Assembly (NCBI GenBank): GCA_004431415.1
Contig: QPMI01000546.1
Span: forward strand, 62,001 to 126,000
DNA from: Cyanophora paradoxa CCMP329
Lineage: Eukaryota; Plantae; Glaucophyta
Direction of reading: 5' to 3'
Length of the DNA: 64,000 nt
Shown here: piece after piece, positions 29,471 to 52,849 of the stretch
Layout: the number at the start of each line of letters is the position of its first letter
How positions within the stretch are numbered: the first letter of the stretch is position 1
Translations under genes and position numbers: made by a program
Notes under the pieces: generated by a model
Told to the model about the DNA's origin: nothing
Database searches by the model: none
What the model saw: the letters and a program-made list of their open reading frames with translations, nothing else

Positions 29471-29555
29471 CGTTGCGCTCAATCAGCACTTCCAGCCGAA
29501 CGGCCGAGATGTAAACCGACGACGCCCATGGTAACGGCGTCTCAACGTATACGTA

Positions 29556-29981
29556 TGTTGTATACGCATGGACCTCACACCCGGGCAATTCCGCTTCGCT
29601 CCATTGCCCCCGATTCCATGCGTTTCCAGTGTATACCTCCAGCCCCTCTTCAGTTAATTCACCTTGTACGTCTACGAGACCCTAATTCCCAGGTCTACCA
29701 GACTCGGGTCGGAGTCTTAACAAAGAAATATCTAACGACTATTCAGGGCAGAGCTGACAACTAGAATAGACGAAGAGGAGCGCTGCCCCCTTGAGCGCGG
29801 TCTGTAGAACAACGTGGCAGAATAGGCTAGGCGATATTAATGAGTACAGAGAAGCTAAACGAGGAAACGTGTTAAGCTCTAGCTAGATGTAATTGATGTG
29901 TACAGAGAAGCTAAACGAGGAAAAAGCGTTAAGCTATAGCCGCACGTAAGGACGGGCCCCAGAGCGGTCTGGTGCGGCCTC
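29556..29981 (+). repeat. Left terminal inverted repeat (426 bp, starts TGTTG)
   Basis: Reverse complement of 51796-52222; the only difference seen is one base in a C/G run. Contains an internal repeat gtacagagaagctaaacgaggaaa twice. Confidence 0.97.
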
Positions 29982-30343: not shown

Positions 30344-31168
30344 CTATGGAGCTGTATCGCTGCCGAATATAGGAAAATACCTATTAGTGCCGTAGTACTC
30401 TGCATATGTGTTCTGTTTAGCAATAGCATCGGTTCGTTCAGCATAAAGGATACATTTGTAGATACCAAACCTGGTAGCTCTTACTAAAAACTGATAATCT
30501 TCTAATCCGAAATTTACACCATGATAAGCGATTCCAAAGTTATCGTAAGGAGTTATTACCACTGTAATATTCGGAGTTCCACCTTCAACCTGGCAGAGAG
30601 CGTAGATATCAGGTGGGATATCCACTACTACCTTGAAATGATCACCAATTTCAACCAGAGAATCAACTACTGATGTTTGCTCATTAACAACGATTGGAAA
30701 GATCTTAATAATATATGGTGCATTCATGCTGGGAACGTAGGTGCGAATACGCGTTAAATTATCAATCGGGTTCGGTTGATCGTTCACAAAGAGAGGAGCT
30801 CCGATAGCTCCACCAACACGAAGACCATCGCCAACATATGCGCCACCATTTCGGCAGTTAATAGCTCCCGAACGAGATTCGAAGGAATAAGTCGAAAGAG
30901 GATCGCCGTAGCTGTCTGGATCGCCATAATGGGCGCTAAAATTTGCATTTGTAACTAGCAACTTTGTAGTTTTGACCACACCATTATTTTTATCACATCG
31001 GAGTTCCTGCAATCTAAGTTTATGTGTAGATCCGAAGGTATTCATTGTAGGTTGAACCTCTGTTGATTCAAGACCTTCTACATCGTCAAAAGTAGAATGT
31101 TGTAAAACATGTGTAGCTGGGGCTGCGAGCGAAAGTTGTGCCGTGACAATACGCTCAATTTCAGTCAT
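30344..31168 (-). CDS. Viral hypothetical protein, paralog A (possible fibre/structural protein)
   Basis: 274-aa ORF; N-half similar to 31192-32046 (PATH..QH...V.GLESTE, ELR.DKN.GVVKTT.LLV.NANF, GGA..G.G.RV.G). Confidence 0.75.
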   Translation of the reverse strand: MTEIERIVTAQLSLAAPATHVLQHSTFDDVEGLESTEVQPTMNTFGSTHKLRLQELRCDKNNGVVKTTKLLVTNANFSAHYGDPDSYGDPLSTYSFESRSGAINCRNGGAYVGDGLRVGGAIGAPLFVNDQPNPIDNLTRIRTYVPSMNAPYIIKIFPIVVNEQTSVVDSLVEIGDHFKVVVDIPPDIYALCQVEGGTPNITVVITPYDNFGIAYHGVNFGLEDYQFLVRATRFGIYKCILYAERTDAIAKQNTYAEYYGTNRYFPIFGSDTAP

Positions 31169-31191
31169 TTTACATTAAAGTGATATATATT

Positions 31192-32046
31192 TTAAGGTGT
31201 TGGATCGTCAATAACATCTGGCTCCTGGTAAAATCCGGTTGTAAAAATATCAGCAATATTCACACCACGAAGTGCTGAAACAGCAGCTATATCTGTTCTC
31301 AGTCCAATTATCATAGTATTATAAACTCCTACCTCAGTGACAAACAAATCATAAGTAAATGTCAAATTGTTATAAACACAATATCCTCTACCGAAATGGT
31401 TTGATGCTTGAACAAAGAATAGGTAATTGTGACCTGGTTGATTGTTGTTTGCTCTGCACATCGAAAGCATTGCTGTGGGAAGAGGAATATTCCTTCTCAC
31501 ACGATCAGTTCCTGTAATGGAAACCAACTCTGAATTTTCAAGAGTGACAGATGAAGCAACATAGAAGTGAAGAAAAGGTTGCTGTGCAACAGGTGTATAG
31601 AACCGAATTCGTTGCGGGTTCTCCACATTTTGTTCAAGAGTATCTGGGACATCATTGTATGCAATCGAAGAAGAGAGTTGACCGGACACACGACATCCAC
31701 CACCAATAAAAGCTCCACCTGATCTCACAGTAACAGCAGCAGAATTCTTATCGAAGTCAAGGGCTTTCAGATCAACACTGTAAGCATCAGGGCCTCCATT
31801 AGTAGGCTGGAAGAAATTTGCATTGCTTACGAGGAGTCGAGTGGTTTTAACTACACCAGAGTTCTTGTCAGCTCGGAGTTCTTTTACGCGAATAATCGAA
31901 TTCTTATCAAAAGCATTCCCGTTAGAATTAGGACGTTCAGTGGATTCCAGACCGCGAACCTCATCATTTACCTCATGCTGGCGAAAGTGAGTAGCAGGGG
32001 ATCCAAGTGAATAGATAGGTAGCTGAACCCGATTATATTCGCCCAT
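31192..32046 (-). CDS. Viral hypothetical protein, paralog B
   Basis: 284-aa ORF; tandem paralog of 30344-31168 with a divergent C-half. Confidence 0.75.
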   Translation of the reverse strand: MGEYNRVQLPIYSLGSPATHFRQHEVNDEVRGLESTERPNSNGNAFDKNSIIRVKELRADKNSGVVKTTRLLVSNANFFQPTNGGPDAYSVDLKALDFDKNSAAVTVRSGGAFIGGGCRVSGQLSSSIAYNDVPDTLEQNVENPQRIRFYTPVAQQPFLHFYVASSVTLENSELVSITGTDRVRRNIPLPTAMLSMCRANNNQPGHNYLFFVQASNHFGRGYCVYNNLTFTYDLFVTEVGVYNTMIIGLRTDIAAVSALRGVNIADIFTTGFYQEPDVIDDPTP

Positions 32047-32089
32047 TGCTTATTTTACTAAGAAGGAAAGAAAAAAAAGTCGGCAGACA

Positions 32090-32398
32090 TCAAGCCAAAG
32101 TGATTAGATTCGCTCCAAGGGCTTGGTAAGCAACAGAAAGAGCTTGAATATTGGCTGTCATTGCTTTGATATTGCTATCGCACTCAGAGTATTTAGCAAC
32201 AGGTTCGCCATAAGCCGATTGCGCAAGGACATTAACCAAGAGGTTTTTATACTCATTGACAACTGGTGACAGTTTGTTAGTTTGCTGAATTGTTTTTTCG
32301 ACATTTTGTAGCGCGGCTACAAGTTTGATAGTATCGAATGCAAGAGCGACAGGCTCAGAAGTAGTGGAAGGAGTTCCACCAAGTGGATACGTCGCCAT
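32090..32398 (-). CDS. Small helical/coiled-coil viral protein
   Basis: 102-aa ATG ORF with amphipathic heptad-like pattern; AT-rich motif upstream. Confidence 0.65.
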   Translation of the reverse strand: MATYPLGGTPSTTSEPVALAFDTIKLVAALQNVEKTIQQTNKLSPVVNEYKNLLVNVLAQSAYGEPVAKYSECDSNIKAMTANIQALSVAYQALGANLITLA

Positions 32399-32429
32399 TA
32401 ATTATACTGTGACATTTTTATTACGGCAG

Positions 32430-35400
32430 TTAAGCAGCCTGACTGCGCCATTGATCTATTTGATCTTGTAAATCTTTGCATTTCTGGGACAATTCTTTAA
32501 CAGCTTCAATGAGAACAGGAACCAAACCCGTGTATTCGAGAGATAGATAGCCATCGTCTTTTTTCACGTTAACAACCTCTGGTATTACCTTTTCTACATC
32601 TTGCGCAATTAAACCTAATTTTGTTCCATCTTTTTCGCTTCCAATTCGTTTAAAACTCACTCCTTCTAATTTCTCAATCGCTGAAAGAGCGCCTGTTATC
32701 TTTTTAATGTCTGTTTTGTATCTTCTGTCACTTCCCTGTGACAAATATGCCGCAATATACAGGTATCCGCTCTGTTCCAAATATGCTATATTTGTATCCC
32801 ACGTATTTCTAAACTCTACTACTGTTGCTCCGTAACCTTTAATGTATGTAGTTGATGATGAACCAAAATAAACTCTCCCATTACCTTCATCTGATGTTAT
32901 CCAAGTTCCGGTTGCCCAAGTTGTGCGAGCATCTTTACTATATACATTATCCAACTGATCATACCATTTGCTGGTGAGGTTCTCCCTTTTTCTTTCGTCC
33001 ATCCAACCATACCAATATAACATCTCCCTTTTCTTGCAACAAATCTAACATGTGAGAAATAATCACAAGCAAAAGAAGCCCACGCCAAACCATCGTGATA
33101 ATCTGTGGTTCCATAATTTGAGACAGTCTGATAAGTATTAACTCGCATAATGTGGAACCATCGACCTGCTCGATAGCCTCCAATATCGAAATATCGACAA
33201 TTCGACCAACACAAATATTGAACATGACATGTTTGCATATTTGCTGGGACTTCAATTTGCGCCCAGTCTCCACTTGTTGAATCACCTTCAACGATACTAT
33301 AAAATCCATCCACAGGATTAGAAACAGAAGCTGTCCAACCTGTCCCCAAGAACCACTAAATGATAGACCACCACTACCTGTTCCACTCCAAGTATCAAAA
33401 CCTATAATGTTTCCAACTAAACTTGGTGTTAGTAGATTTGGCTTACTATAAATGTTATCCCAAGAAACATAACCTGTGTGACCACCATAACTACTTCCTG
33501 TCCAAGTGCGAGTAAATCCAATGCCCATTATGTGAACTCTTCCTACCTTTGGAATAATACGAAGGCGAATAAAGCGATTTCCCAACATAATAGGGACATT
33601 TTGTAAACCATTGTGGTTTCCATCTGGTGCGCTTTCATATTGATGATAACTATTCACTCTTGCAATGAAAACCGCATTTCCTTGTCTATTAATTCCCCAA
33701 ATCTCAAAGTAACGACAATTTACCCAAGGGAGATATGTTAAGTGGGCTGTTCCCGTATATAAATCAGTGGGTATTGTGTAATCAACCCATGAGCCGTTAA
33801 CAACAGTGTCGCCACTCTCATTATTGTAAGCATACCCACCGTAATTATAGTAGGGTTCCCATGCTGTTCCACCTTCAAAACCCCAACCTCCTGCATAACC
33901 ATGTGGCGAATTTCCTGCAACAGTTGCGTCATACTCTACACATCGAGGCATTGTTTTGTCACCAAATTTATAGTTTGTAGTTGCATTTATTGAACCCCAT
34001 TAATAATTGTTCCACTTAGAGTCGGAGCTGACACAGTATTATTAACTGCAAGGTTACCATTTGAATACGATTTTAATAACCATGCATCTGCTGAGTTTCT
34101 GAATTCGACCGATACACCATCACTATGCTCATAACCTCGAATGTATGTAGTTCCACCATTTCCAAACCAAAATCGTGGGACATTATCCGTTGATTTTAAC
34201 CAAGTGGAGACAGCCCATGTTGCTGTTTGTGGGAGGTCTGCGGCTGTAAATAAAGCGGGACGACTGTAAATATTATCCCAACTAATCAAACCATTCGCTG
34301 GTGCTGTTCTTCCTACTTCTTTTGTCCATCCAAGCATTCCAATGTAAATTCGTCCTTTCTTTGCAAAAATTCCAATATGAGAGAAATTCCCACAAAATAC
34401 GGAAGTCCATAATAAACTCGAATGCCAATTTGTGTCGGCTGTGTTTTGAACATTTTGATACGTATTCACTCTCATAATATAATTCCAACGACCATTGCGG
34501 TATCCATAAATATCAAAATATCTTGAATTCGTCCAACATAAGTATTGTATGTGACAGGTTTTCATTCCTGCTGGAACAACACACTGCATGTAGCCACTGC
34601 CACTTTCATCATCTGTCTGGTTGCAATAAAACCCTCTACTGGGTTATCTGTTGTGGGTTTCCATGCTGTTGTCCAAGCCCCAGCTGGGAATGCTACACCT
34701 GTGCTATTCCAACCACTTACAACATCAAACTCGGAATATTTGCCAACAGGATTGAAAGCAATATTATCGTAATGCAATAATCCTGCATCATTATCAGTTG
34801 CTCTTTGTCGACTCCAACCAAAGACACCTGTAAGATAAATGCGACCTTTTCGCCCTTGAACATATATTTTACTGTAAAATTCGCAGTTTACTGAAGTAAA
34901 TATTATAGCTGGGTATGTTCCATCTTGAACTGCAACATCCTGAAGTCCTTGATAGTTATTTATTCGTCTTAGGAAATGTTGATGTCCATTTACAGTTTGC
35001 CCGTAAATATCGAAATATCGACAATTATGCCACAGTAAAGTTGAATATAAAACGATTTCATACCTTCTGGAATTGTCCAACGCATCCAACAACCCGTAAC
35101 ATCTGCGTCATTCTCAGGTGTCGTATAACATCCGGTTAGTCCCGTTCTATGACCTGTCCAATTAACAGTCCAATTATTTGCGCTTCTATCTGTCGAAACC
35201 ACATCTAATTGGTCAAATTCATAACCTTTCGGTATTGTGGTTCCACCAATTTGTAATGTGGTAGCGTTAACGGTTCCGGTGACGGTTCCACCTGTAAGAG
35301 GTAGATAATTCGCAAGTGCCGCCGCTAATTCTGCATCGGTTGCATAACTGCTTAAATCCGCCGACGTGAGATATCCTTTATTGGTAAGGTAATCATCTGT

Positions 35401-38400
35401 AACAACACCGGAAAGGGTGGTATTGTGTAAGTTTTTTGCCGCCATTCTCTGATTGACTTCTAAGGCGCCTCCTGATGTTGTCTTAATCCACGCCATCTCA
35501 CATTTTCCGTGATCATCTGTGGGTTGTCCTGCAACAGGAAGATAGTTTACAACTTTCTCCCTTGTGAATACTATCTTAGGTCTTGCTCCATCATATGCAC
35601 TTTGATCTGTTACATTTACTTGTATCGCTGCTGAAAAATCCGCTACTTGTCCTGTTTCACCCGGGTGATAATTCGTGACATAGATACTGGGGAAAGTATC
35701 ATTTACTCCTACATTAAAATCACCACTATACACTCCATTTACGATTGGATCCCTGGGTAATCTTACTGCAAGAGTTCCCACCATCGGTGTGCCGTCTTGA
35801 CCTGTAAACGACCCATTGAGACTAACATAATGATCATTCAAAAATAGCCTTTCAGGTGTATTAATCGATTGGTAAAGTGTGACTCCATTAAAAACGTTTC
35901 CGATTGCATTCAATTGTGCGAATACTGGCTGTTCGTCTATTTCGTCCCAATTGTGCCTATGTGCAAAATCTGAGATATCCACTTTTGTGTGGGTATGTGC
36001 AAAATCTGTAATATCTGCTTTTAGGTGAGTATGTGCAAAGTCTGTAATATCTGCTTTAAGGTGGGTGTGTGCAAAATCTGTGATATCTGCTTTTGTGTGA
36101 GCATGTGCAAAGTCTGTAATATCTGCTTTTAGATGAGTATGGGCAAAGTCTGAGATATCTGCTTTTGTGTGAGTATGGGCGAAATCTGTAATATCCGCTT
36201 TGACGTGTTCATGTGCGAAATCCGTAATATCGGCTTTGACGTGTTCATGTGCGAAATCTGTTATTTGATCTTTTGTGTGAGTGTGGGCAAAATCTGTAAT
36301 ATCGGCTTTGACGTGTTCATGTGCGAAATCTGTAATATCGGCTTTAACATGTTCATGGTCTGAGGGTGGGAATTTTTCGGGTGCGTCAGGGATATTATCC
36401 CATCTAAAATAATCTTCTGTTACGACTCTTGAAATATTTTCGTTATGAATGTTTTTCGCTGAGGCTCTCTGATTGATTTCTAAAAGACCCTCAGGAACTC
36501 CACCATTATAATTTGTTTTAATCCATGCTACCTCACATTGTTTATAATCGTCACGATCTCCTAAAAGTGTTTCTGCTGCGAGTTGCTCACGGCTGAATAT
36601 TAATTTCGGTCTTGATCCATCCAAATCGCTTACATTCGTCACATTAATTTGTATGGCTGCGTTTTTGTCTGTATAGTTTGCCGGATCTGATGGTAAAGAT
36701 ATTAAACCTCCTGTCATTGGGACGTCTTCCGCATAATAACTGGTTAAGTAGATTCCCGGTTTTGTGTCTTTTATTTCAATACCACCACCAAGTGGTAATA
36801 TTACATCCCTTGTGGGTGGTCTAATATACAATTCGCCATCCATTGTGGTGCCTGCATCGATTCCCTGACGATTCACATAATAATCGTTTAATTGTAATCT
36901 TTCTGGTGTGTCTATATTTTGGTAGAGACTCACACCATTGTTAATATCTCCTAATAATACATTTCCTGCTGATGCAAAAGTGGGCTGCTCTCGTATTTCG
37001 CTCCAAATATGTAAATGGTCTTCCGGCGGAAACTCAGGTGGAATTCCATCGATATCGCCCCAATCATGCCTGTGATCTTCAGGTGGATATTTCTCAGGTT
37101 TACCCAAGATCTCATCCCAATCATGGTTGTGATCCTCTGGTGGATATCTCGCTGGTTTGTTGTTGATCTGTTCCCAATCTGGAAAGAACTCAAAAAGCTC
37201 CGGTTGTAATCCATCTGGTAAAAACTCCTCATGGGTTCATAAGGTTGCTCATAATCCACAACTGGTGGTTCGAGACCATCTGCTAAATATTCCTCATGGG
37301 GTTCATAATTCTGTTCATACTCAAACTCTTGTGGATCTAAACCATCGGGTAAATACTCTTCCTCATTTGGGTCGTATTGATCATACTCATACTCTTGCGG
37401 GTCGAAACCGTCAGGTAAAAACTCTTCCTCATCTGGGACAAATTGGTAATCATCAAGCTCTAATATATCGATTTCAGGAGGTAAATACTGTTCATCTATT
37501 TGTTTTTTCGGTTCGAAGATAGGTTTATTGCGAACTTGCTCCCAACTGACAATATGTTGACCGAAAGGAACTGTCTCATCAGCAACTCGCTCTCGACCAG
37601 GTCCATCCGGGATTGGCGGCTTTGGTAACCCTGGAAGAGGTGGTATAGGGACAATAGGTCCGAAGTAGTAGTTGAAAATGTTGATAACCTGCTCTTCAGT
37701 GCTAACCTTCTTACCATCCTGATAAATATTAGTTCCATGAATATTTCTCCACTGCCTGGTGCGAAGCCCTAGGTCATATCTATCATGCAATGCCGGGAGC
37801 AGGTGCCTGTCAGCCTCAATCAAGATAGAGCCGAAGGTGCATCCAGGAATATCGAACCTGGTGGCTGGCTCGGTATCGATTTGATTTACATCAAACCCGA
37901 AAAGAAGATTTGCTTCTCGTGCATCGGTATATAGTAGATCCCAGGGGAACGGCTGAATTTGTGATGCAAGCACTGATATTGCAGCATCTTCGCCAAGGAG
38001 AATTCGCCCAGTGATTTGAGCCGCAGTTTTGTTTGCGACATCATTTGATTCATCAATTAGACGTAGAGCTGATGTATGGACCCCTCTATCATTTTGGAGC
38101 CTAAATATCAATCTACCAGAATCATACTTGGAGACTGTGCCTGAGGAGGCAATTCGCAGGTGTCGTGGCAACGCCCTGGACCCAATAATTTCAGCAACAA
38201 AGTTCTCAGTGGGACCAAGACAGAATCTCTGTGCAATATCTGGGGCACCAACGTGAGAGTTCCGCAGAATTAATGCAGCTGGTCGACTAAACTCGGTCCT
38301 GTGGATGTCACGATCAGCATTGAAGTCTGCCAAGATGCTTCCAAATACGCGAATATTTATGAGTCGATCATCAACGAAATCTGGAGATCTACGAAGTGGC

Positions 38401-38426
38401 ACTGGCTTCTTCAAGATGTAGGACAT
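32430..38426 (-). CDS. ~2000-aa modular tail-fibre-like protein with C-terminal Peptidase_S74 intramolecular chaperone (seven ORF pieces joined by six single-base frameshifts)
   Basis: C-terminus SDRRYKTDIKKI..AL..IEKL.GV.F...GLIAQDVEKVIPEVV...L.YTGLVPVLIEAVKEL; PPEDHxHxW repeats; HxHxKADITDFA repeats; four ~130-aa repeats containing WxNxRYFxI. Confidence 0.85.
35950..36357 (-). repeat. Eleven 36-bp coding tandem repeats (HxHxKADITDFA)
   Basis: Seen directly in ORF 34990-37107 and in the DNA (gcaaaatctgtaatatctgcttt...). Confidence 0.95.
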
Positions 38427-38450
38427 TTTTATATAAGCCCCCTTTTAAAA

Positions 38451-39934
38451 ATGAAGGTCATTCTCTCACTATCAGGTGGAGGTGCTCGTGGAATAGTCAT
38501 AGCCCGAATTCTACAACGGATTGAGGCGATTACTGGGAAAGCAATACCACAGCTGTTTGATTTCTTTGCAGGCACCTCAACAGGGGCAATAATAGCGGCC
38601 GGATTGGCGATCCCATCAGCTCCAGGCTCTGTTCTTGCTTACCGATATTCTGCAGGTGATATCTTGAGTCTATATCAAACGAACCTGCCAACAATATTTG
38701 CAAATCCGAGATCACTCACAAGCTTGCTCTCAGGAAGCCGCTATGATGCAAATCCTCTGGAGTCGGTGCTTACAGACGTTGCCCTGGACTACACAATTGC
38801 AGAATCGACAAAAGACGTATTAATTACAGCGTTTGATACAGTTCGGATGCAGCCAGTAGTTTTTACGAAGGATGGGCCATATTCAAGCACGCTGATTCGT
38901 GATGCAGTGAGAGCATCTTCAGCAGCACCTACATTCTTTCCACCGAAGGTTCTAGGGACAAAAACCTTGTTGACGGGGCAATTGCCTGTTTGAATAATCC
39001 CTCAGTTGCTGCACTCAGCCACGCCAGTAAAATTTACGATGCAGAAGATCCAATTGTTCTTGTGAGCATTAGCTGTGGTGAAGTCCAAGCCAGTGAGCAA
39101 TTGACTGCAGGCTTTTCGAATTCGGAGACGTCAGGCTGGGGCGCACTGGGCTGGATCCTATCCCTCTCAGGCAGCCCAATCATTTCTATGCTAATGGCTG
39201 GTAGCGAGCTGGAATCGCACTTTCAAATGCAGGAACTGCTTCCAGTTGATGCAGATAGGAATCTAACTAGATACTGGCGTTTAAGTGTTCCTCTGCCAGC
39301 TGCAGTCATGAGCAAGCTTGATGATGCCTCCCCATCGAATATTTCTTATTTGATTTCTACAACAGATTTATGGCTGAAACAAATCGAAATAAATGCTAAA
39401 ATAAATGCGCTCTGCAGCTTTCTATTGGCGAACTACAACCTACTGAACGATGACAGACTAATCATATCGTCAACTTTAACAGTTGAGCCGCCATTTGATG
39501 TCAACTGGTTTATAATTCCAGATGCAAACATCATAAGCAACGACTTTGAGGAATTGCACCCACCTTCTCATGTGCGACCCAACTCAACAGGGTTCCAAGG
39601 TGGCACTCTACCTAATCCCTGGATCAGAGTCGAATTTACAAAGCCTTTTGAGCTACATCAAATCATTATGTATGGGCCAGCTTTTGCTGCCGGAGTCCTA
39701 TTTAATTTCAGCATTCTGACCAACTTAGGATATGTCCAAGATGGGAGGCTTTTTGAAAATACGGTCCTAGCAAATGTGCTTGCTGCGAACCCAACAATGG
39801 CAGGCTTCGATCTAATGCATAGTGACTCGCATTTGATCACCCCACAGGTATATAACTATGTGCAAATTATAACAAACGAATTTATAAATGTGAATGCATT
39901 CCGGCTTGATTTCCGGGGACGTTACATTAATTAG
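38451..39934 (+). CDS. Patatin-like phospholipase with a C-terminal beta-rich extension (frameshift near 38962)
   Basis: LSLSGGGARG, FAGTSTG, ASSAAPTFF, and VDGAIACLNNP after restoring one A in an A-run. Confidence 0.9.
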
Positions 39935-40352: not shown

Positions 40353-41267
40353 CTAAGTGATGAACTGGAGCTCCCCAGACCATGGCAATCCATTCAGTAA
40401 TACATCATCACCATCTCTGTCTACAATGCGCAGTCGCAAGGAAGTCAGCACAAGACGCTCTTCGATGGGGATCCATTCGCCTTGATGATCCTGATTTATA
40501 TAAACGAATTTGCCAACGTCCTGACTCATTTGAATTCGAGCAAGCCCGTAGTTGCACATTGTTTTGGCCCACGGCGAAGCTTTGAAGCAAATGGTCGAAG
40601 CTCTTCACAGACAAGGAATAGATACTGGTCGCTGTTCATGTCAATTATCTTTGGAAATTCGACAGCATAACCAAGTGGCTCACTCCGCATTCTTTCGGTG
40701 AAATCCACGCCATATTCAGGGTGTGAAGGTGTTACTGGAATGCCAGCAACCTCGAGATATCGCTCAGCTGCAGTTACTGATCTTTGCCCTCCTTCAAACA
40801 CGATAGGAGACAGCTGGAGAGACTCATTTCGGTTCAGCCCTAGCAGATTCGATAGAGCTTTGAACTGGCAGGTGACTGTGCAGGAACGGTTGCAATAGGC
40901 AGACATCTTCAGTGTCTCTGGGTCCCGAAACAATTTGAAATATGCCATTACGATTCCCCCAGTTCAAACTTAAACGATAGGCCAAAGTTGTAAAGATCTG
41001 TTTCGCCCATATTTGCAGTAGTAATTATACCAGGCTCAAAAACTGCCAGATTTCCGTCCAAATGTTGGGGAAGGTGATCGAAAGATACTCATCTCTAATG
41101 CTCGTGTAAAGGCTGTTTGCGAACTCACACTGGGTAAGTCGAACAGCAACTGGATTGATTATAGGTTCATTTATTTCTAGCACAAAGTTTGCCTCTGAAT
41201 CGATTGGCCTTCTGTCTCTACTGTCAAAGCTGAGCCTGGCGCAGCGTCGATGCTTGTCTTCGACCAT
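40353..41267 (-). CDS. Minor capsid/penton-like protein 1 (three frameshifts, ~305 aa)
   Basis: N-terminus LSFDSRDR...F.LEINEPI.NPVAVRL..CEFANSLY; C-terminus DQYLFL...LTSLRLRIVDRDGDDVLLNGLPWSGELQF. This is the pattern of single-jelly-roll minor capsid proteins. Confidence 0.72.
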
Positions 41268-41295
41268 TTTTTATTCTCTAACTGATATAAAAAAG

Positions 41296-42252
41296 ATGCC
41301 AACGGACTACGTCTGCATTGCAAGCCACCAAGCGGATGAGCTGACATCCACCTCAAAATTTAAAGTAAGACTGCCTAAAGTTTATCAGGATGTGAAAGCT
41401 GTGCGCTTGGTATCAGCTGAGATCCCCAACACAATGAGCACAGTTGATGCACTCGATCCAGCAGAGGATTTAGTGTTTGACACGTATATATATTGGTGCA
41501 AATATGATCCTGCAAATGAGGGACCCGATCCACCTCAGCCAGGTTTTGGAGCCTGGAATAACATTACAATTCCACCTGGAAATTACGACGTCACCTCGCT
41601 TGTGACAAAGATAAACGATAGGTTGACGGGGACTGGTATCACGTGCACGTATAATTCAGCAGTTAAATCAATAGGGTTCACAGCTAGCTTCGAGTTCTTT
41701 ATTGCTCTGATGTTGCCAACGAACCTGGGTGGGCGGGAAATCAGAAACTACCAGGCTGTTGCTAGGGCTCAGCGAACTGCAAAGCTGCTAGGCTTGCGAT
41801 CAATTCTACCGATTCGGTCTAAGGATTTAACTGTCGATATTCAATATATAGAGGGCGCTTATGAACCCGATGTCACTCCCGATGATCATGTGCTACTTCG
41901 CATTCCTGAAATTGGTGATCTTGTCAGTATGCCCAATACTTCAATTCCTGGCTTCTTCTCAAAGCTCAGCATTCCAAGCGCCCTTCGTCCAGGCGAGACA
42001 GCCTACTACGATTCAACTGAAGCAAATCCTTTGTATAAGTATGTTTATTCAAAGCTGGACCTCTACTCTGTGACTATTGAGATATACGATTTTATGCAGC
42101 GAATCGCTGATTTAAATGGAGCTCCTGTGTCATTTATTCTCGAAATTCGTTATGGTCCTGACGAACCCAATGGTGATGTTGTCTACGAACTTGCAAAACT
42201 TCAGCTCCAGAAAAGGTCAAAGACATATCCTTGGATCAATTCGTCAAACTGA
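41296..42252 (+). CDS. Minor capsid/penton-like protein 2
   Basis: FKVRLPKVYQDVKAVRLVSAEIPNT, ITIPPGNY, DDHVLLRIPE, VTIEIYDFMQRIADLNGAPVSFILEI. Confidence 0.78.
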   Translation: MPTDYVCIASHQADELTSTSKFKVRLPKVYQDVKAVRLVSAEIPNTMSTVDALDPAEDLVFDTYIYWCKYDPANEGPDPPQPGFGAWNNITIPPGNYDVTSLVTKINDRLTGTGITCTYNSAVKSIGFTASFEFFIALMLPTNLGGREIRNYQAVARAQRTAKLLGLRSILPIRSKDLTVDIQYIEGAYEPDVTPDDHVLLRIPEIGDLVSMPNTSIPGFFSKLSIPSALRPGETAYYDSTEANPLYKYVYSKLDLYSVTIEIYDFMQRIADLNGAPVSFILEIRYGPDEPNGDVVYELAKLQLQKRSKTYPWINSSN

Positions 42253-42327
42253 GCTAAGCTCGCGGCACGCAAGCGAGCCTTGGCGAAGCGGCAGAATTAT
42301 TTTCTTTCACTGCAATTATATAAATCG

Positions 42328-43715
42328 ATGGATGTCACTCAAAATTTGCAGCGGCTCGGCCTCAAAGAGCTCCTGACAACTCCACAGGAAGCGAAGGACT
42401 TCTTTATGAACAATGAGCTTATGTTGGGTCTAACGAGCCAAACCAAGCCTGTTCGTGTTGTTGTCAACCCAAGCAATGACTATGGAGACTGCTTCGGTAA
42501 ACGAGTCACCTACTTCCTTCCCAGATACAACTTCCTTCAGGGGCTCGAACTCCAGTTTACCCTGCCCGAGTTGACCGCTTTTACTGGTGACACTGACCTG
42601 GTTCGCACTGGTTATCTGCGGTCTGTTGGTGCTCTTGTAAAGCGAATTGAAATCAAATATGCTTCCTACAGCTACATCGTCCCCGAGGACTGGCTTGTTC
42701 ACAGCGCACTGATTTACAATGATGATGCTCAGCTCAAAAAGAAATACCGGTCCGGTGGCTGGCTACATGGAACACCACCTCAGGGGACAAATCGCGCTGG
42801 AGGTATTTTCAGTGTAAAAATCCCATGTCCCTGGAGGGTTCTGTGCTCCCAATTGGTGCTCTTTCTGGCGAGGTGTCTGTCGAGGTTTGGTTCCGTGATC
42901 GTGCCCAGGGCTTTGTTGAAACCAGCTATGGTGGTAGGTTTGTAACGGAATATGCCATCGGCGGTGATGCCACTAAAGAGGATGGCCTTGGTAGTGTTGG
43001 AGCTGCCGCTGCTTCCCCTGCAAACATCGGCCAGAATATAACTCCCAATGTTCTCAGTGTCACCCCTGCCAATCCGGAGCTTTCTAATCCAAAGATTATT
43101 GCTCATTGTATCAACGTTGATGAGGCCACTTTTGCCCAGGTGATTGAGAAAGTCAAAACGTCTGGAATCGCAATTCCCGCTACCGATGTCGGCTGGGTTG
43201 ATGCTGATTCAATTACTTATGCAGGTGCGGGAGCGCCCACCCGGATTAATCTGTCTCAAATCAGTGGACTTTGCTACGGCCTGTTCGTTAGCATTCGCAA
43301 GCAGCCAAACATGAACCAAACTGATGGAAAACACAGTGTCCTCAAAACCGAGGCTAATGCTCGCGATATCACTATTTCCTGCGAATTGAATGGCCAGCGG
43401 CTTTATTCAAATGAGCCTGTTCCTCTCTTGCAAGGTGCCGAACTCATCGCTGATGTCTTCAAGTGCTCCAATCTCGACGCACCTCTTAATCGGTATGTTC
43501 TGACTGGTTTGCCATTTTGCATTAGTGGGGATAAATCGATTCGAAATGCTGCTCAAACTGGTTTCGTAGATCTGACGAACTCCAGCAGCTGCTTCCTGAA
43601 TATCATGAACCCTGCTGCTTACGATGCTAACAACAAGATTTACGTCCAGGTTCGAGCTCTCCTTCACACTGTACTAATTGTTGATGCTGCGGGTCTTCGC
43701 AAGGTGAACCTCTAG
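42328..43715 (+). CDS. Major capsid protein, double jelly-roll (frameshift near 42833, ~460 aa)
   Basis: FGKRVTYFLPR..FLQGLELQFTLPEL...GALVKRIEI...EDWL...VLPIGALSGEVSVEVWF, and TGFVDLTN near the C-terminus; lies between a penton-like gene and the ATPase. Confidence 0.75.
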
Positions 43716-43777
43716 TCGAATTGTCGTCAGACAAGCTGCCTTGGCTGCGCCTGCGAATCTCGGTAGTTAATTTTTTG

Positions 43778-44527
43778 ATGGATCAGTCTCAAGAGCTCGC
43801 ACAGTTCCAGCCGGGAGACATGAGGGTCCCTTTCAAAGCCCTATTTATATCGAAGTCCAATAGCGGCAAATCGTTCTATTGCACAAAGCATCTGCTTCGA
43901 CTGCTGTATCCAAAGATCAACCGAGTCGTCGTTTTCACTGCCACCAAATTCAATGGTGAATACTCTGCAATAACTAAAGAGCTTTACGACGATTTTCAGC
44001 CATCTATCGTTGCAGAAATCATTGATTCACAGCGCAATTTGATTGAAAACAAAAAGAAAGCGCCGCAGATATTGCTAGTCTTGGACGATCTTGTTGCCGC
44101 CTCTGAAACAGTGGATCTGCGAAATAGCAAGGCTGTAAATCGACTTTTTACGCAGGGCCGACATTTTAATATAAGTACGATTCTTATGACCCAAAAACTA
44201 ACAGCATTAAGTCAATCTATAAGATCAAACAGCGATTACTGCTTTTTCTTCAGTTACAGCAACCACACTGAACTGGAGGCCATTTATAGAGAGTTTAGCC
44301 ATCTTCCAAAAGAAGAATTTATTGCTTTATTTCAAACTTGGGCTCACGATTATCAGTGCCTAGTCCTGGATGGGACCAAATACGATACGGCCTGGTTCGT
44401 CGATAAAGCTGTTGAAGATAAGAGTTTTCGTTTTACAAAATGGGTTAAGAATGAACCTGAAGAACGTAAGACCGAAGATTCTTCGCCTGTTGTCTCTAAA
44501 AAGAAGCGTTTTAAAATCTTACCATAA
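43778..44527 (+). CDS. A32-like (FtsK-HerA) DNA packaging ATPase
   Basis: Walker A SKSNSGKS, Walker B LLVLDD, LFTQGRHFNIS, TQ, SIRSNSDY. Confidence 0.93.
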   Translation: MDQSQELAQFQPGDMRVPFKALFISKSNSGKSFYCTKHLLRLLYPKINRVVVFTATKFNGEYSAITKELYDDFQPSIVAEIIDSQRNLIENKKKAPQILLVLDDLVAASETVDLRNSKAVNRLFTQGRHFNISTILMTQKLTALSQSIRSNSDYCFFFSYSNHTELEAIYREFSHLPKEEFIALFQTWAHDYQCLVLDGTKYDTAWFVDKAVEDKSFRFTKWVKNEPEERKTEDSSPVVSKKKRFKILP

Positions 44528-44536
44528 GAAAAGAAC

Positions 44537-45175
44537 ATGGGTCGCGGGATTCCTAAGAAGGGCTATCGTGAACGACGCAAGGTTAATATATCTGAGCCGA
44601 ACGCCCCACTGATTGAAAGCGGCTCGACTGAGGGTGCAGCTGTTGCTGATCCTAGCGGAGAGCTAGCTAGTGAGCCCCAATTAAATGCACCTGTCGCTAA
44701 AACAATTGCCTCCGCAGCTGCTGGTGCCAGTGCAATTGACGACCGACATGCCCAGGCTAAAACCGTTACGGAAATGCAGTCTGATATCGATGATGATGCT
44801 GCTAGAATTATCCAAGCCATGGCGTCTGAGCCTAGATACTCCGGTCCAAAAATCAAGACAGCATCGGTATCAAAGACGCAGTTTGACGAACTAGCTGCTA
44901 AATTGCGTGATCTAGAAGCGAGGTCGGCTAATATCGAGAGCTACGTAAAAGACAAGCAAGAGAGAGCTAAAATTCGTGAGATGTTGCGAAGCGAAATGTT
45001 TAAGACAAGAGTGATGGATGCACCTGATTTGCGGTATTTGAAAAACGAAAAAGCTAAAGCCGAGCAATCGCTTGACTCTGCCGAAGTAAAACCAGCAACT
45101 CCAAATGTTTTTGAACCCAATTCTACGAGCTCACAGATGAAGAATGCGATGGGTGGGAGAAGGATTCGTCTGTGA
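44537..45175 (+). CDS. Viral hypothetical protein, basic N-terminus and coiled coil
   Basis: 212-aa ATG ORF directly after the ATPase. Confidence 0.7.
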   Translation: MGRGIPKKGYRERRKVNISEPNAPLIESGSTEGAAVADPSGELASEPQLNAPVAKTIASAAAGASAIDDRHAQAKTVTEMQSDIDDDAARIIQAMASEPRYSGPKIKTASVSKTQFDELAAKLRDLEARSANIESYVKDKQERAKIREMLRSEMFKTRVMDAPDLRYLKNEKAKAEQSLDSAEVKPATPNVFEPNSTSSQMKNAMGGRRIRL

Positions 45176-45698: not shown

Positions 45699-45727
45699 CT
45701 TCTTTACAATCTGAGATTGAGATCTCT

Positions 45728-46018
45728 TTAAGGCAAGTCAAAATCTGGCAAATCCGGAAGATCCTCCACAGTAGGTTTTCTCTCTCGCTCAGCGAAGTCA
45801 AGCATTCCGTTGACTGTTGCCAGATCTTCCAATTGACAAATTTCAAAAGCCCGCTGCAATTCACGTTTGTCGTACTCACGAAGATGCGGCCAAGATAACA
45901 ACCATTCCGCATATTTTGGGTCGCTAAAAACTACTTTAAGATGAGTTTCACCGCGGTACTTCCCAAATCGAATTGTTCCTGCGGCGCAGCGACGCTGCTT
46001 GTCTAGATCTGCGTCCAT
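45728..46018 (-). CDS. Small FGKY-motif protein (exonuclease-X C-terminal/DUF3820-like)
   Basis: IRFGKYRGET...DPKYAEWL. Confidence 0.65.
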   Translation of the reverse strand: MDADLDKQRRCAAGTIRFGKYRGETHLKVVFSDPKYAEWLLSWPHLREYDKRELQRAFEICQLEDLATVNGMLDFAERERKPTVEDLPDLPDFDLP

Positions 46019-46127: not shown

Positions 46128-46403
46128 ATGGATGTTGAATCATCAACTAAACAGCGTGGTCGCAAACCAATTGTTGTCACCCCTGAAATTGCTGCGGCAC
46201 GAAAAGCAAAGCGTGCTGAAAATCATCGCCGTCGTTACAATGAAGATCCGGAATTTCGCCGACGACACATTGAAGCCAGTTCGAAATACCAGCAGAACAA
46301 CAGCGAGAATCATTTAGAGGCCAATCGCCGCTATCGCAATCGAATCTACGAAAAGTTAGCACTGCTAGAGTCCCTCCAACAATGTGTTGTTATAGCTCTT
46401 TGA
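46128..46403 (+). CDS. Small basic putative DNA-binding protein
   Basis: RGRKP (AT-hook-like) followed by an Arg/Tyr-rich helix. Confidence 0.6.
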   Translation: MDVESSTKQRGRKPIVVTPEIAAARKAKRAENHRRRYNEDPEFRRRHIEASSKYQQNNSENHLEANRRYRNRIYEKLALLESLQQCVVIAL

Positions 46404-47526
46404 CTAGCCTTCTGGTCTTTGTTCTCTCTAATATTCCACCAGGGTTTAACTTGACAGTTCCAGCTGTCGCAAGTTGCTTTTGAAGGCGAAGCAGCTTCTT
46501 ATTTTTTTCTATGTCCACTCGATCTAAATTCTCTCGCATCAGATTTAGCTCCTTCTTTCTGCGCTGCTGTGACCGCTGTGCTGCATTTCCCGCACGACGT
46601 TCCTCTGAATCTACTGGGACCTTTAAAAGTTGCTGGTAGGTCACTGGTGTATCCGATCCAGCGAGTTTAAATCTTAGAAGGGGTCCAAAACCCCCAATCA
46701 ACTCAATTCGAAATACTTCTTTCGAGAAGGTTGGCTTTGTCGATTTATCGAAGGTTCTCCTGGTTAGCTTAACTCGAACTAGGTCTCCTACTTTAAATTC
46801 GACCTCCTTCAGGTAGTGTTGCTGCTCGTAGATCTCTCGCTGATAATCGTTGCGCGCGATTGTCTCCTTCGGATTCTCTGCTGCAGCGTTTGGCGATGTA
46901 CCAATCGACCTATGCTCTGACGAATTATAATTGCGCAAGAAAGCGGGCAGCTTGTCGATGTACCTATCCGTGTCATATGCCTCCATATACCGTGCAATAA
47001 CTCGCTTCAAAGTTCCATTAAATCTTTCTATTTTGCCGTTTGCTTGTGGTCGATGCGCTTCCACAGCATTGTGCTTAATTCCCTCAGCTTCTAACAAACT
47101 ACCAGCTGAAGCTTTAAACTCCTGATCTGTCTGAATAATATCCGGCTTGGCTGGAAAACTATCTATGAGTTTCCGTAGTGTTGAAAGGAGTGTACTTTCG
47201 CTCTTGTTCTTCATTGGAATGCTGTAGGCTTTCCGAGTCACTACGTCCACTGCGTTCATTATAAAGTGAATACCGCGGTTTGTTCTAGCGTACGGAGTCA
47301 CGTCGATTAGGTCCACCTCGTAGTATTTCTCTGCTTTGTCGTATGTTATACTTGTGAATGGTTTCTCTTTTTGCGGCCTCGCAAATCTTTGCGCTGTCGA
47401 TAATTTCTCCAGCACTTCTCTAACCCTGGAAACTGGTATTTTCAACTTCTTGGCAATACGTGTGGCAGACTGAAGCCCTATTTCTGGATCATAGTATGCC
47501 TCCTGAATTTTGGCTGATGTACTCAT
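46390..47526 (-). CDS. Retroviral-like (rve) integrase, Polinton type
   Basis: YYDP N-terminus; DDE triad in EVDLID, VDVVTRKA, QTDQEF and IERFNGTLK; YNSSEHRSIGTSP; FKVGDLVRV. Confidence 0.95.
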   Translation of the reverse strand: MSTSAKIQEAYYDPEIGLQSATRIAKKLKIPVSRVREVLEKLSTAQRFARPQKEKPFTSITYDKAEKYYEVDLIDVTPYARTNRGIHFIMNAVDVVTRKAYSIPMKNKSESTLLSTLRKLIDSFPAKPDIIQTDQEFKASAGSLLEAEGIKHNAVEAHRPQANGKIERFNGTLKRVIARYMEAYDTDRYIDKLPAFLRNYNSSEHRSIGTSPNAAAENPKETIARNDYQREIYEQQHYLKEVEFKVGDLVRVKLTRRTFDKSTKPTFSKEVFRIELIGGFGPLLRFKLAGSDTPVTYQQLLKVPVDSEERRAGNAAQRSQQRRKKELNLMRENLDRVDIEKNKKLLRLQKQLATAGTVKLNPGGILERTKTRRLVKEL

Positions 47527-50500
47527 GAGGAACTGTGCTGTAATAGTCATCCGAAATTATCTTTCGCTTTGTGTATTCCGTCTTATTTAATACTCTGCTG
47601 AATGGAATCTGAATGATTGAACTAAAACCTATCCCCTCCTCGCGTTGCTTTCCATTCGGTTTGAAGACACGAGATAGTTTAGACTCTATTTTGCACTCCG
47701 GCTGATACCGGCTCTCAAGCATCTGCTTGAACGCTTCCAAAGCAACCCGAGAATGGAGGTGCCCCTTCCTCATCTCCGGATCATTCGAAAGCCAGTTCTC
47801 TTCGATCCAGCTTTTTGGTATTCCTTTGGCACGCACATGCACGTCCGATTCACCGTTCGCTTTCACGTACCGACAACAGTACACCTTGGGCCCAACGAAA
47901 TACGCCTCCACAATGTGTCCCTGGATATCGTAATCTAGTTTTCCAAGTTCGCTCTCGCAGATCACCCTGTTCGCCTCCTCTTCGCCCATTCCCTCCACAG
48001 AGTAGGGCCGCTTCATGCAATCAGTCACCAGCTCTGCAAATTTCCTGTGCACAACAAGAGAGTCCGTGTCCGTGTAAAACGGCATGGCTTCGATGTCTTT
48101 ATAAGAGTTCATCTTTACTAGGAACCTGTCCATTATCTCGCGACTGTAGGACAGAATAAATGCTCCAATAAAACAGGGCTTCGACACACAAGCATCACGT
48201 TTGCTCTCAGGTACTTCATATGTCACATACATCCGTGTTTCACTCTCAATTTCGATGTCTGTAATCGTAGACGTCCGCTGTAGCTCCTTAAATCGGCGGT
48301 AATTAGAAACTAGCTCTGTTGTTTCGATCACAGGCCTCTGGGCAAATTTTCCGTAAAGACCATTTAATTGAATCTTTGCTGTTGCGTACTGAGCTGTGCC
48401 CTTCCTTGAACGAGCTTTCATACAGTATAACTTCTCGATGTAATCTTTAAACATTCTCTCCTTGCCTTCAAATAAATACACCTCGTGAACTTCTGTTATT
48501 TCCACCCCAAGCGCTATCGCCCTGTAGATATCAACCGATGTATACATCTCGCGCTCGATCGGTTTCAGGTTCGACCAGCCCAAATTCGACTCGTGACGAG
48601 GTAGCGAGAAAGCACAAGGTCCTGAGGAATTTTCGCACTGATGCTCGCAATGAACAGTTGCTCCATTTTTCGACTTAACATGAACTTTCTAAAACGTTCT
48701 AATGCCTCCGGTTCATTGATTAGCTTAAATTTACCTGTAGGAAACTGGTTAAAGTACATAGCGGTTGGATATAGAGAGACCACATCCAGATCTACCAAGT
48801 AATCATCTGGACCCTTCGAGACAAACTTGCGTTTGAATGGTAAACAGCGACCTCCGTAAATCGCCCTGCGAAACACCTGATCTTCACTATACTTCGGAAG
48901 TTGCAGCTCTGTCTTCAACAGCTGCCGGTAAATCTGAAAAGCCATTGATGAAGCTGTAAGTGTTTGTTTGGAATTCACATTTATTCCAAATAGATCAAAG
49001 CTCGTACTCGAATATTTCATGTATAGCTCCGTCATCGATCGCACGTCGGCTCTAAGATATTCTCCCCATTCCTCCTTGTGTGTCTCAACGTCTGCCCACG
49101 TCTTGATCTTGCGATGGTCAAAGTCTCCTTTGATTGTCGTGCAGCCGTAGTCCTTTCCAGCCTGTTTTAGTGAACCTTGAATATGTAGGCACGGGTCAAA
49201 ACTCGTCAACTCTCCTCCTGCTGACGTCTTCCATTTCATACTCTTAATCTTGCCCGAGGAGCGCATGACGTTCACCTGGCTTTCTGGCCGATTCTCAATC
49301 AGCCATCGGTATATGAATATCAGATCAAAACCAGCACCGTTGTAAAATACTACTGTGGTCTTCTCTGCCCAAGCATCCAGCCATTGCATGAATTGATTTA
49401 ATGTTTCAGGACCGTAAAACATCTTGGTTCCTACAATTTCGCCCTTGCATATTATGTCTGTGTCAACAGCATAAGGAACGTGGGTCTTGCCATCACAAGG
49501 AAATGTTTCAAAGTCAGCCCCTATCACGCTATCCATCGCTGTAAATTCACTCTCCTTTTCGCAAGGAGTAATCTTTCTTCCAATAACACCTTTGTTTCTG
49601 ATGGCGGCAACGCATTTGTTTGTGTGATCTTCAATTGGATTGTAGGCGCAACGACATCTAGCACAAAACTGACAGGTTAGCTTGTGTCTTTCCAGTTCGA
49701 ACTGCATTTTCCCGCAGGCACTACACTTCTCCATCTCAGTCGTTCTTTTATCCTTAATCAGGTAGCAGTGCACATCGACTATACAAAGGTGAGCACGTTT
49801 TTCAAATCCTAGATCGGTCGCAAAAAGCAGCTTAAACTTTCCTTGCGAAAACTCAAAAACGCTGGTGTCTATTCTGTAAAAAGCGCTCAGCTTATTAATC
49901 GTTGGCACATCAACTGATATCATTCCTCGCCGCAGTCCTAGCTGTGTTCTAATCCCTCCGTAGTCCAGTCTCTGAAGTTGCTTGTAAATTCGATCAAGGC
50001 TTATTCTTCCAGGGTTTAGCTTCACATATTCAAAACACTCAAGCACACAGTTGTCTTCTGGTGAAATCGGACAGTAGATCTTATTCATGGTCAGGGCTTT
50101 GCCATTGAATGGGAGTTTCGGTACGTTTCCAAGTGCGCCTGCAGCGTTCTCTGCAATGAGCACCTCTATTTTCACTACTGGCCAAAGGTCGTTGTCTTCA
50201 TATGGCTGCTGCGCTAGCATCCATTGTTCCATCTTTTCAGCCAGATTTGACAAGAGCGACTGCATTGTGCCCTCTTCGATTGTTGCTAGTTGAGTGCGAT
50301 ACATGCGAAAGTTATCGAAATGAAACCGAATTAGGACGCTTGATCCTATTTTCTCTGGAATTCGCAGCTCTCTCAGAAACTCAATCGTGATCTCTTTAAC
50401 CCGCTCAGGTATTGGAGTCGGATCAATATCCAAAATATCCTTGGTAAATAACAACCCCGGATATGCATAGTGAGTATAATTTAACACGGTATCACCTCGA

Positions 50501-50814
50501 CCTGTCTCGCGAAATAAATTCGAGATCCCATACTCTACAATTTCATCAAACTCTCGCGTGGCTTCAATTCGAGCATTGCGTTCGTTCTCAAAATGACTTG
50601 TTATCCATGACTGGTACAAAGGGCGCTGCGGCCGGTTCGTCTGTCTAAGTCTAAGCAATGTTGAAAGATTAGCTCGAAGATTTTGTGTGTGGGTTCCCCT
50701 CTGTGGGTCTGCTAGTCGCATCAGTGTGTTCAAATATGTTCCGTTAATGTACCTAAGATTGTGTAGCTCCTGCGCTAGACTCCGAATTTCAGCTCTCAGA
50801 TTGTTCCTGTCCAT
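47489..50814 (-). CDS. Protein-primed family B DNA polymerase (frameshift near 48605)
   Basis: Exo motifs ADFET, YNGAGFD, YLRADV; Pol motifs YGGRC, DVVSLYPTAM, KIQLNGLYGKFAQ, YTDTDS, GPKVY; long N-terminal region with a Cys-rich cluster. Confidence 0.95.
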
Positions 50815-50949
50815 TATGAATAGGTCTCTACAATATTGGATGGCCGAAAACTTTTTGGGATTTAATCGCAGACAATCTCTGATTGCTAGTATGTATGCGA
50901 GAAACCTTTAAGTCATACAACTTACTGCAAGACCTGTCTCCGGCTAGCA

Positions 50950-51795: not shown

Positions 51796-52222
51796 GAGGC
51801 CGCACCAGACCGCTCTGGGGGCCCGTCCTTACGTGCGGCTATAGCTTAACGCTTTTTCCTCGTTTAGCTTCTCTGTACACATCAATTACATCTAGCTAGA
51901 GCTTAACACGTTTCCTCGTTTAGCTTCTCTGTACTCATTAATATCGCCTAGCCTATTCTGCCACGTTGTTCTACAGACCGCGCTCAAGGGGGCAGCGCTC
52001 CTCTTCGTCTATTCTAGTTGTCAGCTCTGCCCTGAATAGTCGTTAGATATTTCTTTGTTAAGACTCCGACCCGAGTCTGGTAGACCTGGGAATTAGGGTC
52101 TCGTAGACGTACAAGGTGAATTAACTGAAGAGGGGCTGGAGGTATACACTGGAAACGCATGGAATCGGGGGCAATGGAGCGAAGCGGAATTGCCCGGGTG
52201 TGAGGTCCATGCGTATACAACA
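51796..52222 (-). repeat. Right terminal inverted repeat (427 bp, ends CAACA)
   Basis: Reverse complement of 29556-29981. Confidence 0.97.
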
Positions 52223-52849
52223 TACGTACCCTGCCGCAAGAGCACAATTTCAAGGCGATCAGTTTCATGCATATGAATCGAAGAAAAATGGGAAGCGAAG
52301 ACAGTACTAGTATCACCTTCCATTCTTTCCTTCCTTGCAGTGTTTGCAGCTGCGTATGCATGTACATATGCATCCATCAGAGATCAAGGTAGGGCCGCCA
52401 TGTGTATGTTACAATTTATTTAAATAGGTGATTTAGATTTAAAGAGATCTAGAGGAACTTCCGAAGAAGGGAACATGGCCCAGTATACGTAGAGCCGATC
52501 GCGAGGGAAGTGCATTTGCATGCTACGAGTAGCTATAGGTGAAGTTAAAGAGAGGAAGTTCCAAAGAAGCTTATAATTAAGGGGACATGGAGCCGACGTC
52601 GCCCACGGTCAAAACGACGCATATATATGGGGGCGTGAGGGACATTAATATTGCAATTGAGAGAATATTAATGATGAAACGGGATTGCTCGGCGCCGCAT
52701 GCGCAGCGCCTTGGCACATGGAACGGCGGCCATTGTCGGGTTCGCTCTTGGCAGTGAAAATGAACGACGGGCCGGGAACGCGAGTGAAAGCTTAAAATCT
52801 ATGATATCGATCTTCGGCAAAATATGCATGCATATATGTACGTATACGC

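Follow-up and report, generated by a model that had tools for sequence, protein, structure and literature searches.

A 64,000-nucleotide stretch of the glaucophyte alga Cyanophora paradoxa CCMP329 (assembly GCA_004431415.1, contig QPMI01000546.1, positions 62,001 to 126,000 of the forward strand; the whole of it hereafter called the window) contains a virus-like element of 22,667 bp that is likely an endogenous Polinton-like virus (PLV). One of its genes probably encodes, with a chance that we put at roughly three in four, the intact 2,000-residue attachment fibre of this virus, predicted to be a three-chain rod with a self-cutting Peptidase_S74 (S74) chaperone and, near the tip, four domains of a predicted sugar-binding type through which it would attach to the host surface. 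It is very likely that the gene is a single open reading frame (ORF) interrupted by assembly errors. Its translation runs from the ATG at 38426 to the stop at 32430-32432 through 2,000 codons with no in-frame stop, an X marking each of six one-base breaks, and this agrees with the single ORF of 6003 nucleotides after six +1 corrections that had been proposed in an earlier, sequence-only reading. The fibre assignment follows from the S74 match of 62.4 bits, the phage chaperone 6F45 as best PDB match, matches to 1,334 phage records, a Pfam PTR match above its cut-off and the PHROG tail families that were hit; a trimeric vertex fibre is what these similarities to known proteins best suggest.

From the N- to the C-terminus, the first half of the protein consists of an N-terminal region, a proline-rich linker, acidic repeats, three PPEDHxH units, domain A1, a block of histidine repeats and domain A2. 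The second half consists of a linker with the motif YLPLTGG, domains B1 and B2, a small module C1, another linker, domains B3 and B4, a second small module C2 and the S74 domain (Table 1). The order claimed from the sequence was recovered on the X-joined translation, with SDRRYK at residue 1901; the small repeat C, present besides B, had been absent from that list of domains.

The C-terminal domain matches the Pfam family Peptidase_S74 (PF13884) with 62.4 bits against a cut-off of 22 (E 5e-17), over positions 1-57 of the 58 in the profile. Ser1901 and Lys1906, with which the domain begins, have the five-residue spacing of the known dyad and are aligned to 6F45, a phage long-tail-fibre chaperone that is the best PDB match of the C-terminus (E 4.7e-6); the sequence alignment extends into the C-terminal tail, where chaperones of this family have a three-helix coiled coil. 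The Ser-Lys dyad is S911/K916 in endoNF and S587/K592 in MyRF, and cleavage takes place only in trimers (PMC8326128). The proposed S74 chaperone at SDRRYK was thus upheld by a profile match above the cut-off and by the spacing of the dyad, and by analogy autocleavage would occur at Ser1901. The C-terminus matches 42 PHROG families; of the 25 shown, most are tail fibres. Its last 171 residues match 1,334 of 50,697 phage records at less than 60% identity, and C2 together with S74 matches the ends of phage tail fibres at 31-38% identity, with up to 95-97% of the query aligned.

The histidine block, opened by a fourth PPxDHxH, was found to hold 11 strict HxHxKxxIxDF repeats with a period of 36 nucleotides, the number given in the sequence-only reading. 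When scanned by itself, the block matched PTR (PF12789) with 28.5 bits against a cut-off of 27, and no PTR match was obtained when the 748-aa piece was scanned whole. Both histidine columns are invariant in all 11 repeats. Pairwise differences among the repeats fall at third codon positions in 278 of 451 cases, and codon pairs comprise 187 synonymous versus 121 non-synonymous ones. The units match phage tail and collar proteins as well as PHROG tail families. The three PPEDHxH units also match PHROG tail families (best E 2.6e-10), with weak PDB matches to 6CL5 (E 0.085) and 9D93 (E 0.017). In the fibres of pyocin and T4, an octahedral iron is held by three HxH copies (PMC6116203), and by analogy the histidine repeats of this protein may bind metal.

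The proline-rich linker is 24% Pro, while the acidic stretch is 33% Asp plus Glu with four copies of EE[FY]L[PA]DG. No Pfam match and no related viral contig was found for the N-terminal region, within which residues 203-242 gave one weak 40-aa match to cyanophage proteins (E 0.04). The domain of about 180 aa and its claimed second copy were both found, as A1 and A2. No relative of domain A appeared in viral contigs, protein clusters of 336-2000 aa, prokaryote genomes or the PDB; the scans for relatives of domains A and B used one or two short patterns or shared words, and absence from phages or bacteria is not implied. A2 gave Atlas matches of 0.93 to unnamed Bacteroidota clusters, which are weak by the tool's own recognition score. 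Domain A, present twice and without relatives in these searches, may represent another new knob.

It is likely, judging from the relations among its domains, that the distal half arose by tandem duplication of a linker-B-B-C unit, because B2 and B4 are 55% identical and B2 plus C1 is 51% identical to B4 plus C2 over 221 residues, whereas the other pairs of B domains share 28-39%. In a trimmed quick tree of the B domains, B2 joins B4 (99) and B1 and B3 are unresolved; the tree gives no donor or direction. The four repeated domains had been described as about 130 aa long, and they measure about 160 aa. Domain B has conserved motifs of its own (W-x-N-x-RYF[DE]I-x-G, R and GR), and no Pfam or PHROG family was found for it.

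Folding of B3 from its single sequence gave a pLDDT of 30, while a model built from a 30-row alignment reached a pLDDT of 83.4 and a pTM of 0.81 and was all-beta. Compared with 48,161 chains by VIA-align, this model gave a best Z of 11.4 (rmsd 3.3, 126 residues aligned), with CBM35 and CBM6 carbohydrate-binding modules (CBMs) of glycoside hydrolases in the top rows, and Foldseek agreed, listing CBM29 and CBM6. Domain B is therefore predicted, from the model, to fold as a galactose-binding-like jelly roll. Like CBM6, CBM35 and CBM29, B3 has a predicted beta-sandwich topology of this type (Z up to 11.4 over 115-143 residues); unlike them, domain B has no sequence match to any Pfam CBM, an identity of at most 16% and its own motifs. 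A viral fold library returned only matches of low TM for B3, Atlas matches of domain B were below 0.9 and serve as leads only, and a single-sequence search gave no relatives. NECAP, the best PDB sequence match to domain B (E 0.002), was rejected. A prediction of a three-copy B3 complex, in which the alignment was not used, gave no answer, with a score of 0.00. Sugar binding by domain B would follow by analogy with the CBMs. Without a family match at the level of sequence, domain B is at most CBM-like in how it works and is not counted as a CBM.

Relatives of domain B turned up by pattern scanning in 3 viral contigs, out of 64 pattern matches, and in 2 metagenome contigs, out of 41; profile scoring of 7,993 proteins brought out 21 at 25-42% identity. 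Seven of these 21 carry S74, and some of the rest carry collagen, F5/8 or TLDc domains; the B domains of the 21 have no Pfam match, CBM families included. Phage proteins could be among these relatives (P0001-P0021). Contig L001 has giant-virus-like neighbours (an XRN exonuclease, RNase III and an SNF2 helicase), as does contig L003 (a cap N7-methyltransferase), whose protein has B followed by S74. In contig L002 the relative of B lies within a run of long fibre-like genes, one of which has laminin G3. In the protein at L001:8990-10714, a B domain is accompanied by a hydrophobic N-terminus, collagen repeats and a weak PAN match, which makes it an instance of domain B without S74. Nothing resembling domain B was found in the 50,697 phage records (B2 plus C1 as query) or in GTDB genomes (one pattern). 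The description of the fibre as an assembly of bacteriophage-type modules thus held for the histidine repeats and the S74 end and not for the four B domains, whose relatives lie in giant-virus-like contigs or are unplaced metagenome proteins, with none in the isolated-phage and prokaryote sets searched.

Domain B, for which Pfam has no entry, is a candidate receptor-binding family seen again on the fibre-like proteins of giant-virus-like contigs. One tentative proposal, which we consider possible and rather less than even, is that it represents a family of glycan-receptor modules swapped between the fibres of PLVs and giant viruses, multiplied fourfold in this protein and perhaps aimed at the algal surface sugar that its helper giant virus also targets. 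If this is true, the distribution of domain B could link PLVs, helper viruses and hosts.

The most likely scheme of how the fibre would work takes each of its steps from what is known of the families concerned. Three chains would join at the S74 domain and its C-terminal helix. Folding of the rod would then proceed towards the N-terminus, with sextets of histidines keeping the metal ions in register, one ion for every three HxH motifs along the shaft, and the chaperone would release itself by a cut at Ser1901. Docking on a capsid vertex would be the part of the N-terminus, with the acidic and proline-rich stretch serving as a flexible hinge. The B domains, of which a trimer has up to twelve, would bind surface glycans with avidity, and the neighbouring patatin lipase may help membrane entry.

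The target of the B domains may also be a different one. We think it unlikely that, in a fibre that is otherwise real, they attach to a protein receptor or to a helper giant virus, through its glycosylated surface, and that the particle enters together with the giant virus. The relatives of B with readable context do sit in giant-virus-like contigs (L001 and L003), the jelly-roll fold serves protein binding too, and Sputnik enters on the fibres of its helper (PMC12220804). However, that giant viruses carry domain B on fibre-like proteins of their own would rather suggest a target on the cell surface, and PLVs that bear fibres have been argued to enter unaided (PMC12220804; 10.1101/2022.07.28.501842).

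That this copy of the attachment fibre gene is intact rests on the nature of its breaks. The six frame changes between the seven minus-strand ORF pieces, near 37232, 35036, 34627, 33994, 33343 and 32950, all have the same sign. All six lie in homopolymer runs, at least 3 long at five sites and 2 long at one; runs of at least 3 make up 7.8% of all runs within the gene. Contigs from public sequencing runs (7 of the 24 listed runs were compared, with run X1 common to both comparisons) have one more letter at five of the sites in 4/4 runs, and the sixth site likewise has one more letter in 4/4 runs. The breaks are likely assembly errors because they all fall in homopolymer runs and the public-run contigs have the additional letter at 6/6 sites. 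Certain contigs differ from this copy by a single letter only. Evidence independent of reads comes from the similarity between internal copies, which continues through the breaks. The capsid candidate of the element, likewise broken here, is whole in the close relative P0022, which supports the reading as one ORF: P0022 is an unbroken 456-aa protein, 60% and 73% identical to the two pieces of the candidate, and is filed by its source under the glaucophyte alga Cyanophora paradoxa. The patatin-like gene also has one more letter in public-run contigs, near 38955.

It is very unlikely, given these observations, that this copy is a decayed pseudogene with true one-base deletions and that sister copies alone encode the whole fibre. 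Short-read contigs merge many copies, further genes of the element are broken too (the polymerase, the capsid candidate and the patatin gene), and read correction of a multi-copy element can yield a false consensus (PMC10120064). Decay would, however, be hard to reconcile with six of six breaks of one sign, all in homopolymer runs, with 2,000 codons free of in-frame stops, with terminal repeats that are 100% identical and with contigs that depart from this copy by the one letter alone. Some contig joints bypass parts of the fibre gene within window positions 34288-36300 (for example 34288 to 34788, and inside the histidine repeats). These joints hint that sister copies vary in how many repeats or B domains they have; several are short-sided and are possible repeat artefacts.

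The setting of the fibre gene in an integrating eukaryotic virus-like element, also claimed before, was confirmed by terminal inverted repeats (TIRs), a target-site duplication, a family B DNA polymerase (pPolB, protein-primed), an rve integrase and an A32 ATPase (Table 1). The element has 43.9% GC against 66.1% GC in its flanks. Its likely target-site duplication, TACGTA, is palindromic and could instead be the final 6 bp of a TIR of 411 bp, which is the count of the repeat finder; rve integrases typically leave duplications of 6 bp (PMC12220804). The assignment to the Polinton-like viruses rests on the ends, on the genes for replication, integration and packaging, and on gene order. An adenovirus-type maturation protease is a feature of Maverick-Polintons in the strict sense. 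No protease family was found among 25 ORFs scanned, including all 18 stop-to-stop ORFs of at least 200 aa in the element, a scan that a divergent or broken gene could escape. We consider it highly implausible that the element is transposon-like and forms no particles, with the protein as a passenger outside any virion (an adhesin-like protein, for example, secreted or cytoplasmic). Searches left the capsid and penton assignments unconfirmed, but the A32 packaging ATPase adjoins a conserved capsid-sized gene, and the combination of S74 and PTR is the architecture of virion fibres.

Table 1. The fibre gene with its parts in N- to C-terminal order, followed by the ends and other genes of the element (window coordinates)
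Feature	Position	Strand	Remark
Fibre gene	32430..38426	minus	2,000 aa with X at six one-base breaks; seven overlapping ORF pieces
N-terminal region (aa 1-260)	37650..38426	minus	putative capsid anchor, from position only
Pro-rich linker and acidic EE[FY]L[PA]DG repeats	37155..37649	minus	66-nt period
Three W-x-x-I...PPEDHxH units	36994..37176	minus	phage fibre or collar type
Domain A1 (about 180-190 aa)	36421..36993	minus	46% identical to A2
11 HxHxKxxIxDF repeats of 12 aa and a twelfth HxH	35950..36369	minus	Pfam PTR; 36-nt period
Domain A2	35410..35940	minus	46% identical to A1
Domain B1	34745..35223	minus	one break inside
Domain B2	34254..34744	minus	one break inside; 55% identical to B4
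Small module C1	34005..34235	minus	41% identical to C2 over 56 aa
Domain B3	33436..33945	minus	unbroken; predicted CBM6/CBM35-like jelly roll
Domain B4	32937..33414	minus	two breaks inside
Small module C2	32733..32933	minus	stalk preceding the chaperone
Peptidase_S74 chaperone and C-terminal tail	32433..32732	minus	starts SDRRYK (Ser1901, Lys1906); PF13884
Left TIR	29556..29960		405 bp, begins TG
Right TIR	51818..52222		405 bp, ends CA; 100% complementary to left
Left copy of likely target-site duplication	29550..29555		palindromic TACGTA
Right copy of likely target-site duplication	52223..52228
Patatin-like lipase gene, two pieces	38274..39934	plus	PF01734, E 3.5e-22; divergent from the fibre gene
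Candidate minor capsid (penton) gene	41299..42252	plus	by size and position
Candidate major capsid gene, two pieces	42253..43715	plus	adjoins the ATPase
A32-type packaging ATPase	43685..44527	plus	PF04665, E 2.7e-9
HNH-AP2 homing-type endonuclease	45123-45737	minus	Pfam
rve-type integrase	46390..47556	minus	PF13683, E 3.2e-8 (above cut-off); PF00665, E 4.4e-7 (below)
pPolB, two pieces	47489..50907	minus	PF03175, E 6.1e-32 and 3.5e-22

The penton candidate at 41299-42252 (plus) gave no Pfam, PHROG or PDB match; it carries a putative penton motif. Back to back with it lies a gene in three pieces (40353-41270, minus), the start of which resembles what is presumably also a minor capsid (penton) motif and which may be a second penton; the two candidates gave no BLASTP alignment to each other. 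A profile comparison of the capsid candidate with the presumed capsid-like ORF of contig L003 was not significant, and no related viral contig was found for the 748-aa piece, the capsid candidate or the ATPase. The C-terminal part of the patatin gene (39400-39934, plus) resembles a discoidin (F5/8) domain by eye, a likeness without a Pfam match; discoidin-patatin fusions are described in glaucophyte PLVs (PMC12220804). Immediately after the fibre gene comes a 103-aa ORF (32090-32401, minus) with no significant family. Further downstream are two tandem paralogous genes (30344-31174 and 31192-32049, minus), 35% identical over 259 aa and with no Pfam or PHROG family, which are possible further virion proteins. 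A non-coding 99-nt direct repeat (51023-51121 and 51673-51771, 96% identical) lies between the pPolB gene and the right TIR. Outside the element, the window contains remnants of mobile elements on the host side, namely a weak reverse transcriptase match (E 0.0008) at 6880-8652 (minus) and a hAT dimerisation domain at 57187-57723 (minus), and also a 292-nt exact direct repeat at 5105 and 5545.

Several points weigh against an intact, sugar-binding attachment fibre of a virus. The N-terminal anchor and domain A are without an assigned fold, and neither the capsid nor the penton candidate was confirmed in searches of families, PDB or profiles. Chains of Eph, MAM and Cry domain III come within about 1 Z of the best CBM matches of B3, and its jelly-roll fold, at that low identity to any CBM, also occurs in proteins that do not bind sugars. 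The public contigs pool a family of similar copies in which many other letters differ; they show intact frames within the copy family and do not strictly speak for this copy. Only one of the listed contig pieces (X3 record 20) spans a break with at least 31 letters on each side, and it shows no other differences.

Much of the general picture of such a fibre is already in the literature. S74 genes are ubiquitous in the PLVs of most eukaryotic groups, often ending modular proteins of up to 3.9k aa, and the fibre modules of PLVs include PTR repeats, with a PTR-PTR-H_lectin protein in a Cyanophora PLV (PMC12220804). Particles of PgVV-14T contain a phage-fibre-like protein (10.1101/2022.07.28.501842), and endosialidase chaperones are enriched in genomic islands of giant viruses (PMC13620141). 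The novelty that the sequence-only reading implied for a phage-style fibre ending in S74 does not hold, since such modular fibres had already been described in PLVs (PMC12220804). The concept is known, and what is added is domain B, which has no Pfam or PHROG family. No description of this domain was found in the literature searched; the supplementary tables of PMC12220804, searched for three terms, may list this element. CBM35 does not occur in the available text of PMC12220804, and the preprint 10.64898/2026.10.13.758929 has no fibre passage. A complete, read-supported example is also added, from an element that appears broken and is probably intact. Cell recognition by PLVs has been argued from homology in the literature available, and a soluble B module of 160 aa with a confident model makes it testable.

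Among known systems, the C-terminus resembles phage fibres with intramolecular chaperones (6F45 and endoNF, and also MYRF) in its S-D-x-R-x-K start, Ser-Lys spacing, GLIAQ motif and C-terminal position. The identity is only about 30-38%, this S74 domain sits in a eukaryotic virus-like element, and the domains upstream of it include ones for which no phage relative was found. The shaft has the W-x-x-I-x-x-x-P...PP-x-x-H-x-H and H-x-H-x-x-x-x-I-x-D units of the R pyocin fibre 6CL5, T4 gp37, the collar fibre 9D93 and Pfam PTR, a likeness in which the PDB matches given above are weak; unlike 6CL5, T4 gp37 and 9D93, it has 15 HxH motifs, in two blocks around A1.

Ltf (PGVV14) of the Phaeocystis globosa PLV PgVV-14T, also called Gezel-14T, is comparable in being phage-fibre-like; it is the longest ORF of that virus and is found in particles together with a putative lipase (10.1101/2022.07.28.501842). 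Unlike the present fibre, Ltf is built from T4 gp36-like repeats, with no S74 or endosialidase in the available text on it, and PgVV-14T encodes a tyrosine recombinase and an alpha/beta hydrolase in place of the rve integrase and patatin seen here. Another close likeness is to the PLVs of PMC12220804, which are also TIR-flanked elements with pPolB, rve and A32. Their S74 fibres combine S74 with laminin G3, collagen, avian adenovirus fibre, BppL_N or chlorovirus repeats, and PTR with S74 in one chain and domains A and B are not among the rows of Fig. S6 as given in the PDF text. The present fibre shares with them a long multi-domain chain, a single C-terminal Peptidase_S74, repeated domains of binding type and phage tail repeats.

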